Below, in pieces: positions 30,936 to 31,196 of a DNA stretch of 47,287 nt. How positions within the stretch are numbered: position 1 is the stretch's first letter; each line of letters starts with the position of its first letter. Under the pieces are notes generated by a model. That model worked only from the letters and a program-made list of their open reading frames with translations. It did no database searches and was not told the origin of the DNA. This stretch comes from a virus (Duplodnaviria > Heunggongvirae > Uroviricota > Caudoviricetes), in IMG/VR virus record IMGVR_UViG_2870474514_000002, one strand, 5' to 3'. Position numbers and translations under genes: made by a program.

Positions 30936-31010
30936 TGGAGCGGGTAGCGGGAATCGAACCCGCATCATCAGCTTGGAAGGCTGAGGTAATAGCCATTATA
31001 CGATACCCGC
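30936..31010 (-). tRNA. tRNA-Gly (anticodon UCC)
   Basis: 75 nt cloverleaf folded by hand: acceptor stem GCGGGTA/TACCCGC, anticodon stem TCAGC/GCTGA, loop CTTCCAA, T-arm GCGGG-TTCGATT-CCCGC, encoded 3' CCA. Close to host glyT but not identical. Confidence 0.85.
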
Positions 31011-31013
31011 ATA

Positions 31014-31089
31014 TGGTGCCGACTACCGGAATCGAACTGGTGACCTACTGATTACAAGTCAGTTGCTCTACCTGCTGAGCTAAGTCGGC
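31014..31089 (-). tRNA. tRNA-Thr (anticodon UGU)
   Basis: 76 nt cloverleaf: acceptor GCCGACT/AGTCGGC, D-stem GCTC/GAGC, anticodon stem ACTGA/TCAGT, loop CTTGTAA, T-loop TTCGATT, 3' CCA. One A-C mismatch in the T-stem. 3 nt upstream of tRNA-Gly. Confidence 0.8.
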
Positions 31090-31159
31090 ATTGGTTCTTC
31101 AGGGGAGCGATATCACCGATCAAAGAAGAGTTCCCCCTCAGAACCGTTTTCGATAATAC

Positions 31160-31196
31160 GATTTAATATTCCAATCGCAACAACACTTTGCGTCAA
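31160..31196 (-). promoter_or_regulatory. Putative sigma70 promoter for the tRNA pair
   Basis: On the minus strand: TTGACG (31196..31191), 17-nt spacer, TGGAAT (31173..31168), about 70 nt upstream of the tRNA-Thr 5' end. Confidence 0.3.

Follow-up and report, generated by a model that had tools for sequence, protein, structure and literature searches.

A tRNA-Thr(UGU) and tRNA-Gly(UCC) cassette in the late region of a Rac-like lambdoid prophage of Escherichia coli

We analyzed a stretch of Caudoviricetes DNA of 47,287 nucleotides (nt) (IMG/VR virus record IMGVR_UViG_2870474514_000002, hereafter the window) and focused on a pair of adjacent tRNA genes on its minus strand, tRNA-Thr(UGU) and tRNA-Gly(UCC). 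The two genes are likely to form a functional operon, an accessory cassette in the late region of a Rac-like lambdoid prophage that has its own promoter and supplies tRNAs for codons that the prophage uses heavily. This reading is carried by the identity and integrity of the two genes, their conservation and that of the promoter and of a leader hairpin, and the codon bias of the prophage. The window is 100% identical to positions 749223-796509 of the chromosome of E. coli AR_0374 (NZ_CP027126.1), and the RefSeq annotation of that chromosome already includes both tRNAs. Features are on the minus strand unless stated otherwise, and are then given in the direction of transcription.

Results

The two tRNA genes and their host counterparts

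ARAGORN called exactly two tRNA genes in the whole window, both on the minus strand: tRNA-Thr(UGU) at 31089..31014 and tRNA-Gly(UCC) at 31010..30936. Both fold into the elongator-tRNA cloverleaf of the Rfam model RF00005 with scores (72.2 bits, E 5.7e-14 and 65.6 bits, E 3.8e-12, respectively) that exceed the curated gathering score of 29 bits, and both encode the CCA end. In the transcript, tRNA-Thr is followed by a 3-nt TAT spacer (31013..31011) and then by tRNA-Gly. A preliminary description of this DNA, made from its letters, had proposed two cloverleaf tRNAs with encoded CCA lying 3 nt apart, and ARAGORN and RF00005 place them at the same positions.

The phage Thr gene is identical to thrU of E. 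coli K-12 at 75 of 76 positions, and the sole change is U16 to C in the D-loop. The Gly gene matches K-12 glyT at 73 of 75 positions; the two differences form a single compensatory change of an acceptor pair, C6:G67 to U6:A67, in agreement with the earlier statement that this tRNA is nearly but not fully identical to glyT. The anticodon arms of both phage tRNAs are identical to those of the host. An A-C mismatch in the T-stem of the Thr gene, pointed out in the preliminary description, is indeed present. However, host thrU has the same mismatch, so it is a native, inherited feature and neither a defect nor a peculiarity of the phage.

Threonyl-tRNA synthetase recognizes G1-C72, C2-G71, G35 and U36, and each of these positions is unchanged in the phage Thr gene, which has the anticodon UGU of thrU. 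The identity nucleotides of glycyl-tRNA synthetase are G1-C72, C2-G71, G3-C70, U73, C35 and C36; the phage Gly gene has the anticodon UCC of glyT, and the C6:G67 to U6:A67 change falls outside these positions. Both tRNAs are judged genuine and look functional, and on the basis of these alignments the two genes are taken to be phage-lineage copies of the enterobacterial thrU and glyT.

Codon usage of the prophage

The codon usage of 53 annotated prophage genes was compared with that of 36 host genes of the same strain using a Fisher test. The ACA codon occurs 16.4 times per 1000 codons in the prophage versus 5.8 in the host sample (odds ratio 2.8, p = 3.5e-16) and GGA 15.5 versus 5.8 times (odds ratio 2.7, p = 2.3e-14), a contrast that is somewhat exaggerated because the host sample comprises only 36 genes, including the highly expressed atp and ilv genes. 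The carried tRNAs match codons that are over-used relative to the host. These two codons rank fourth and fifth among the most enriched prophage codons. The top three are AGA, AGG and AUA, which are served by the extra tRNAs of larger arrays (see below) and of Shiga toxin (Stx) phages. The GC content is 47.5% in the window and 51.4% in the host sample.

To our knowledge, the thrU and glyT tRNAs are the only ones that read ACA and GGA in E. coli. Because the host itself has a single thrU..glyT locus, the gene dosage in AR_0374 is doubled by the prophage. Both the enrichment of ACA and GGA and the doubled gene dosage agree with the view that phage tRNAs compensate for codon usage (Bailly-Bechet et al. 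2007, cited through PMC7946995).

Probable promoter and leader of the cassette

Upstream of tRNA-Thr, the promoter scan identified a probable sigma-70 promoter, TTGCGA-16-TATTAT (31180..31153), with 9 of 12 consensus matches, from which transcription would start near 31146. This element is conserved in relatives. Among 28 distinct upstream sequences of related hairpin-type cassettes, the spacer between the -35 and -10 hexamers is 16 nt in 26, the -10 hexamer is TATTAT in 15, TAATAT in 9 and TATCAT in 2, and the -35 hexamer is TTGAAA in 14 and TTGCGA in 4. The distance from the end of the -10 hexamer to the leader hairpin is 7-8 nt. The element therefore combines hexamers at a spacing in the 16-18 nt range of sigma-70 promoters with retention in relatives. 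Related phages that carry four tRNAs have an independent and even clearer promoter, TTGCAA-17-TATTAT, which directly follows a terminator, has a GC-rich discriminator and abuts the first tRNA.

The preliminary description had proposed a different promoter-like element, TTGACG-17-TGGAAT. The exact string is present (31196..31168), but the consensus scan did not report it, as TGGAAT has a G at position 2 of the -10 hexamer where the scan requires an A. Its -10 position is also not conserved in related leaders, where the aligned letters are AGAGAG, TTTGAT, AAATAA and similar. When judged by an A at position 2 and a T at position 6 of the -10 hexamer and by conservation, this element does not qualify as a sigma-70 promoter; the conserved one lies 16 nt further downstream. 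The cassette very probably has its own sigma-70 promoter, as had been supposed and as the hexamers kept in 26 of the 28 sequences suggest, located at 31180..31153 and not at the hexamers first proposed.

The promoter is followed by a conserved 5' leader hairpin of 53 nt (31145..31093), then by AAT and the first nucleotide of tRNA-Thr. The hairpin comprises a 6-bp outer stem, a tandem G.A/A.G, an inner stem of about 4 bp and a variable loop, and it folds at -20.5 kcal/mol (z -2.5). RNAalifold applied to eight loci recovered 11 pairs, none of them broken and two with compensatory changes. In a larger sample of 29 distinct hairpins from 57 loci, the stems pair in 96% of cells when in register versus 21-76% after a shift of the 3' arm by 1-3 nt. 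Pair 6 is C-G in 11 hairpins, U-A in 11 and U.G in five, and the tandem G.A/A.G is essentially invariant (kept in 27-29 of the 29). One-sided stem changes mostly yield G.U, which points to a constraint at the RNA level on the minus strand.

The Rfam search returned no match for the leader hairpin. Reasonable guesses for its role are a 5'-terminal stabilizer, a folding insulator or a processing signal. We also considered whether the leader derives by decay from the tRNA located before Thr in the four-tRNA arrays. This possibility was rejected, given that the local alignment scores between the leader and the preceding tRNA (11-15) fall within those of shuffled sequences (mean about 12.4, maximum 20-25).

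Distribution and variants of the cassette

Of 5,426 complete E. coli genomes, 169 cover at least 80% of a 901-nt region with the cassette; a minimum of 11 RefSeq chromosomes match all 901 nt at 100% identity and have both tRNAs annotated. The leader region was found in 207 E. coli genomes. The two tRNAs occur at 6,577 places in 5,420 E. coli genomes; with one host locus in each, this corresponds to up to about 1,150 extra copies. The median is one thrU..glyT place per genome, strain AR_0374 has two, and the maximum for the pair in a single genome is six.

A scan for the exact pattern Thr-CCA-N(0-12)-Gly detected the cassette in at least 120 IMG/VR viral contigs and, among species representatives, in E. 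coli (three copies), Shigella flexneri (three), E. ruysiae, Citrobacter braakii and Enterobacter hormaechei. Among the matches listed, the tRNA bodies of 136 full-length cassettes are near-invariant and the spacer is TAT in 132 of 138 Thr-Gly junctions. In the same set, the host-identical form is the commonest Thr variant (74), and the C16 variant of the window is found in seven; the Gly gene is of host type in 63 and U6:A67 in 43, with a U6.G67 intermediate in two. ARAGORN detected the Thr-Gly pair alone in 64 of these cassettes, the array Met(CAU)-Lys(UUU)-Thr-Gly in 38 and the array Met(CAU)-Arg(UCU)-Thr-Gly in 18. The intergenic gaps of the four-tRNA arrays are 1, 2 and 3 nt.

The flanks of the cassette fall into unrelated classes that cannot be aligned with each other. 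We read this pattern as that of a selected, mobile tRNA module and not of a relic, with purifying selection acting on the tRNA bodies.

Some Thr bodies have switched anticodons. One copy in phage SerU-LTIIb (L004, 1122-1197) has the anticodon UCU ('Arg') and three further changes, and two IMG/VR viral contigs (L092 and L136) have UUU ('Lys') together with an A26 to G change. These are apparent cases of anticodon remolding of a phage tRNA. Another locus, L010 (NZ_CP076279.1, 1419708-1424761), belongs to an Stx2a prophage in which stxA, stxB and an STnc100 gene are followed, in this order, by a disrupted gene for a DNA methylase, the Thr-Gly cassette and genes of a subtilase-like AB5 toxin, so that the cassette is placed between two toxin loci. 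The occurrence on a 423-nt low-coverage contig (L022) from an assembly of the myxobacterium Corallococcus exercitus is most likely contamination.

Trailer and terminator

A small conserved hairpin (GCACTG-GCGTA...TACG-TGGG, 30906..30880), located 30-55 nt past tRNA-Gly, recurs in many divergent variants of the downstream sequence. RNAalifold applied to ten trailer variants gave seven pairs for this hairpin, two of them with compensatory changes. A conserved CTGTTCT box follows it at about 30846-30860 of the minus strand. The scan further reported a weak terminator-like stem (30837..30816). We tried two open reading frames of the trailer as genes (30 amino acids, 30931..30839; 64 amino acids, 30873..30679). 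They have no Pfam match and no PGAP annotation, and the trailer was treated as non-coding.

A strong intrinsic terminator is predicted at 30571..30546. It consists of an 8-bp stem with five G-C pairs, a 4-nt loop and U8, thus a GC-rich stem-loop with a U-run on the transcribed strand, and folds at -12.4 kcal/mol (z -5.1, none of 200 shuffles as good). It is the first strong terminator 3' of the tRNA promoter and 5' of the holin gene, and for the holin to stay silent in lysogens, transcripts from the tRNA promoter must not extend past it. The preliminary description had noted a strong 9-U terminator downstream of the tRNAs. Such a terminator is real and on the minus strand, but it has U8, lies 365 nt beyond tRNA-Gly and overlaps the 3' end of an element that weakly matches another RNA family.

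This element (30739..30542) aligns with the full length of the STnc100 model (RF02076) at 27.3 bits versus a gathering threshold of 47 (E 3e-4 in local search). Because its score is below the threshold, it is referred to as STnc100-like only. The exact CGGGAGGCACCCG hairpin and the position of the terminator are common to the element and to the true STnc100 (129.8 bits) of L010, which is located in the late region of a prophage that also has the Thr-Gly cassette. STnc100/PasD-type small RNAs (sRNAs) have been placed in the interval between Q and the holin gene (Zhu, Shabalina and Storz, bioRxiv 10.64898/2026.05.13.724894). The strong terminator is the 3' hairpin of the STnc100-like match. Given this overlap and the distance of 365 nt, it cannot simply be assigned to the tRNAs, and it is better described as the end of the STnc100-like module than as a dedicated tRNA terminator.

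A terminator-like hairpin of 10 pairs with a T-run is also present on the plus strand (30498-30531), opposed to the terminator 30571..30546 of the minus strand. As the annotation shows no plus-strand gene ahead of it, this hairpin could mark the 3' end of an antisense or small RNA encoded in the stretch that precedes the holin gene.

Prophage setting

Essentially the whole window is taken up by a single Rac-like lambdoid prophage of full size that appears to be complete, with genes for integrase, early functions, replication, Q, lysis, terminase, head and tail. Named genes on the early side are intR/xisR, ralR with the RalA sRNA, recET and kilR; the repressor region includes ydaT, ydaU and ydaV and is followed by NinB-like, HNH-like and Q-like genes. 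After the tRNAs come essD, rrrD, a spanin gene, trkG, a ParB-like gene, the terminase, head and tail genes, and stfR. Jobling has described full-size prophages of the Rac-like type (PMC5917428).

The gene 5' of the cassette is a PGAP-annotated coding sequence (31984..31442) for a Q-like late antiterminator, which matches PHROG 753 ('anti-termination protein Q-like', E 3e-79), the Pfam domain DUF1133 (E 1e-107) and Phage_antitermQ (27.4 bits versus a cut-off of 26). Between this gene and the cassette lies a tR'-like intrinsic terminator (31362..31326) with a 13-pair stem and a T-rich tail, which folds at -17.6 kcal/mol (z -5.8, none of 200 shuffles as good). A simple promoter scan did not find the PR' late promoter between 31441 and 31362. 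The first lysis gene 3' of the cassette is the holin gene essD (30157..29942, annotated by PGAP; PHROG holin, E 1.5e-37). All of these features are on the minus strand, thus the cassette is located between Q/tR' and the lysis genes on the strand of the late transcript, as is typical of a lambdoid late-region cassette. The preliminary description had assigned the tRNAs to the interval between a tR'-like terminator and the lysis genes, the slot of the Stx-phage tRNAs, and the coordinates of Q, tR' and holin agree. For Stx phages, tRNA genes have been described at this position, downstream of Q/tR' and ahead of the lysis genes (PMC9729726, Fig. 2 legend; PMC7946995).

We considered two roles for tRNA genes of prophages in connection with integration. 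In tRNA-dependent lysogeny, a phage tRNA replaces a host tRNA destroyed by integration (PMC10865867). This does not apply to the cassette, because host thrU..glyT is intact in essentially all genomes and because the cassette lies in the middle of the prophage and not at the attachment site. On the same two grounds, the reading of prophage-internal tRNAs as integration hot spots (10.64898/2026.05.13.724894) does not fit.

Other genes and RNAs of the window were also recorded. The potassium transporter gene trkG (27389-28846, minus strand) is part of the late operon, between the spanin and ParB-like genes, and has the same location in the induced phage vB_EcoS-683R6. An epoxyqueuosine reductase gene involved in tRNA modification, queH, is found in the early region (34694-35362, minus strand; PF02677, E 1e-65); it is unusual cargo and adjoins a DUF1971 gene on the opposite strand. 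The RalA antitoxin sRNA (217 bits, 45553-45731, minus strand) lies opposite ralR, and a match to the RNA family IS009 (219 bits, 969-1167, minus strand) lies within a tail-fiber assembly gene (902-1510).

Discussion

Predicted expression and use of the cassette

The predicted course of events, from the start of transcription through processing and aminoacylation to any fitness effect, would differ between the lysogen and the induced cell. In the lysogen, the tR'-like terminator would stop transcripts from the late promoter before they reach the cassette, and the cassette would be transcribed from its own promoter, TTGCGA-16-TATTAT. The 5' end of this transcript would be the conserved leader hairpin. 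RNase P would cleave the 5' end of each tRNA, and 3' exonucleases would remove the 3-nt spacer and the trailer up to the encoded CCA. Transcription would end by 30571..30546 at the latest, short of the holin gene. After induction, RNA polymerase modified by Q would read through the whole region from the late promoter, and phage replication would raise the gene dosage, so that the tRNA supply would go up just as the late genes are translated. The benefit would be a supply of two low-copy isoacceptors that is doubled or more, matching the bias toward A-ending codons.

Alternative explanations

Several observations weigh against an operon with its own promoter that serves codon supply. In positions 29900-32200, promoter-like hits are as frequent as in shuffled sequence (4 versus 3.8 +/- 2.0 expected), the -35 hexamer TTGCGA matches the consensus at four of six positions only, and the sequences behind the promoter conservation are related and not independent. 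Since the hits are at chance level in the single sequence, the promoter call rests on comparative conservation. The terminator scan found no canonical terminator directly after tRNA-Gly, and the strong terminator further downstream may be part of an sRNA gene in its own right. The lysis genes are not rich in GGA, and the composition of the host sample, mentioned above, inflates the codon contrast. The observations on the promoter are what would be anticipated if the cassette had no promoter of its own, the hexamers were chance matches, and the tRNAs were made only in the Q-antiterminated late transcript after induction. We consider this unlikely, given that TTGnnn-16-TAtTAT keeps a constant distance to the hairpin in 26 of 28 distinct upstream sequences that otherwise diverge, and that the four-tRNA relatives have an even clearer promoter, just 3' of a terminator and abutting their first tRNA. 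Moreover, the upstream terminator 31362..31326 would otherwise silence the cassette in lysogens.

Alternatively, the cassette could persist mainly as shared sequence at which mosaic lambdoid genomes recombine, or as captured host DNA that has been carried along as a relic, with no translational benefit in either case. This would account for a 154-bp unit amid differing neighbors, with Q or a DNA methylase upstream and different holins, TerB, SubAB-like genes or IS66 downstream, and for the two copies in SerU-LTIIb, which flank a duplicated holin fragment. A relic would decay, however, whereas both tRNAs keep every stem, the compensatory pair is fixed, and the promoter and leader are conserved together with them. 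The carried tRNAs also match the most enriched codons, which argues for translational use. We regard such a patch or relic as very unlikely; the differing neighbors and the SerU-LTIIb duplication make it plausible that recombination at the cassette occurs as a side effect. A role in counter-defense, in which the extra tRNAs replace or outnumber host tRNA-Thr and tRNA-Gly under attack by a tRNA-targeting nuclease or an acetyltransferase toxin, is highly improbable. Some phage tRNAs are known to rescue translation from anticodon nucleases, and the cassette is very widespread in temperate enterobacterial phages, both of which would suit this role. However, the anticodon stem-loops are identical to those of the host, so that the phage copies would be cut as readily, and the commonest phage variants are host-identical throughout (74 Thr and 63 Gly among the matches listed). 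In addition, we know of no nuclease that targets tRNA-Thr(UGU) or tRNA-Gly(UCC) in E. coli.

A bolder possibility, to which we give little weight, extends the operon itself to a composite non-coding operon expressed in lysogens. The leader hairpin would then be a processing or protein-binding element or give rise to a stable leader-derived RNA, and the 365-nt trailer with the STnc100/PasD-like module and the terminator would be cut free of the tRNA precursor to act as a regulatory sRNA. Such an RNA would be akin to the sRNAs that host tRNA operons yield from their 3' external spacers, and a single prophage transcript would join the supply of tRNAs to regulation by an sRNA.

Significance of the cassette

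Lambdoid phages are textbook carriers of accessory tRNA genes in their late region, and the cassette described here is an ordinary example that is common in such phages. Little is added to the existing annotation, as the tRNAs are annotated in RefSeq for the exact sequence and also in GenBank phage records. Only two points are mildly new, the conserved hairpin of the leader and a possible connection with an STnc100-like sRNA. Read as an operon for codon supply, the cassette is a good example of a temperate phage that carries tRNAs matched to its codons, with relatives that add tRNAs for the top three codons. It is also a mobile unit that combines a conserved, probable promoter of its own with a structured leader, and no Rfam family was found for this leader. 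Models of tRNA gene dosage in E. coli, or of the translation of horizontally acquired A/T-rich genes, should allow for additional copies of this otherwise single-copy pair, up to about 1,150 across 5,420 complete genomes.

Comparison with known systems

The phage cassette has the same isoacceptors and anticodons and the same encoded CCA as the host operon thrU-tyrU-glyT-thrT-tufB. In contrast to the host operon, it lacks tyrU and the 116-nt intergenic spacer and has the 3-nt TAT instead, thrT and tufB do not follow downstream, and its promoter, leader and trailer, within a prophage, are unrelated to those of the host. The STnc100/PasD family (RF02076) resembles the trailer element 30739..30542 in its alignment over the full model, in its internal hairpin and terminator position, and in its location between Q and the holin gene; the element of the window differs in its score (27.3 versus 47) and is not a filed member of the family.

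Among phages, vB_EcoS-683R6 (ON470595) has the same layout of Q, tRNAs, holin, lysozyme, spanin and trkG at 93% identity, with the cassette annotated, whereas its Thr gene has the host-type U16. SerU-LTIIb (KU052038) also has an annotated Thr-Gly cassette, and differs in that one of its two cassettes has a Thr body with the anticodon UCU. The ileZ-argN-argO clusters of Stx phages, located between Q/PR'/qut and stx, share with the cassette the slot 3' of the late antiterminator and 5' of accessory and lysis genes (PMC9729726; PMC7946995). Like the cassette, they serve A-ending codons that are rare in the host. They differ from the phage studied here, which carries only Thr(UGU) and Gly(UCC) and has no toxin genes after them. 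The arrays Met(CAU)-Lys(UUU)/Arg(UCU)-Thr(UGU)-Gly(UCC) of other enterobacterial temperate phages in IMG/VR end in the same Thr-TAT-Gly unit, serve A-ending codons and have their own sigma-70 promoter just 3' of a terminator. These arrays include two more tRNAs and have no leader hairpin, and their promoter, with its GC-rich discriminator, directly adjoins the first tRNA.

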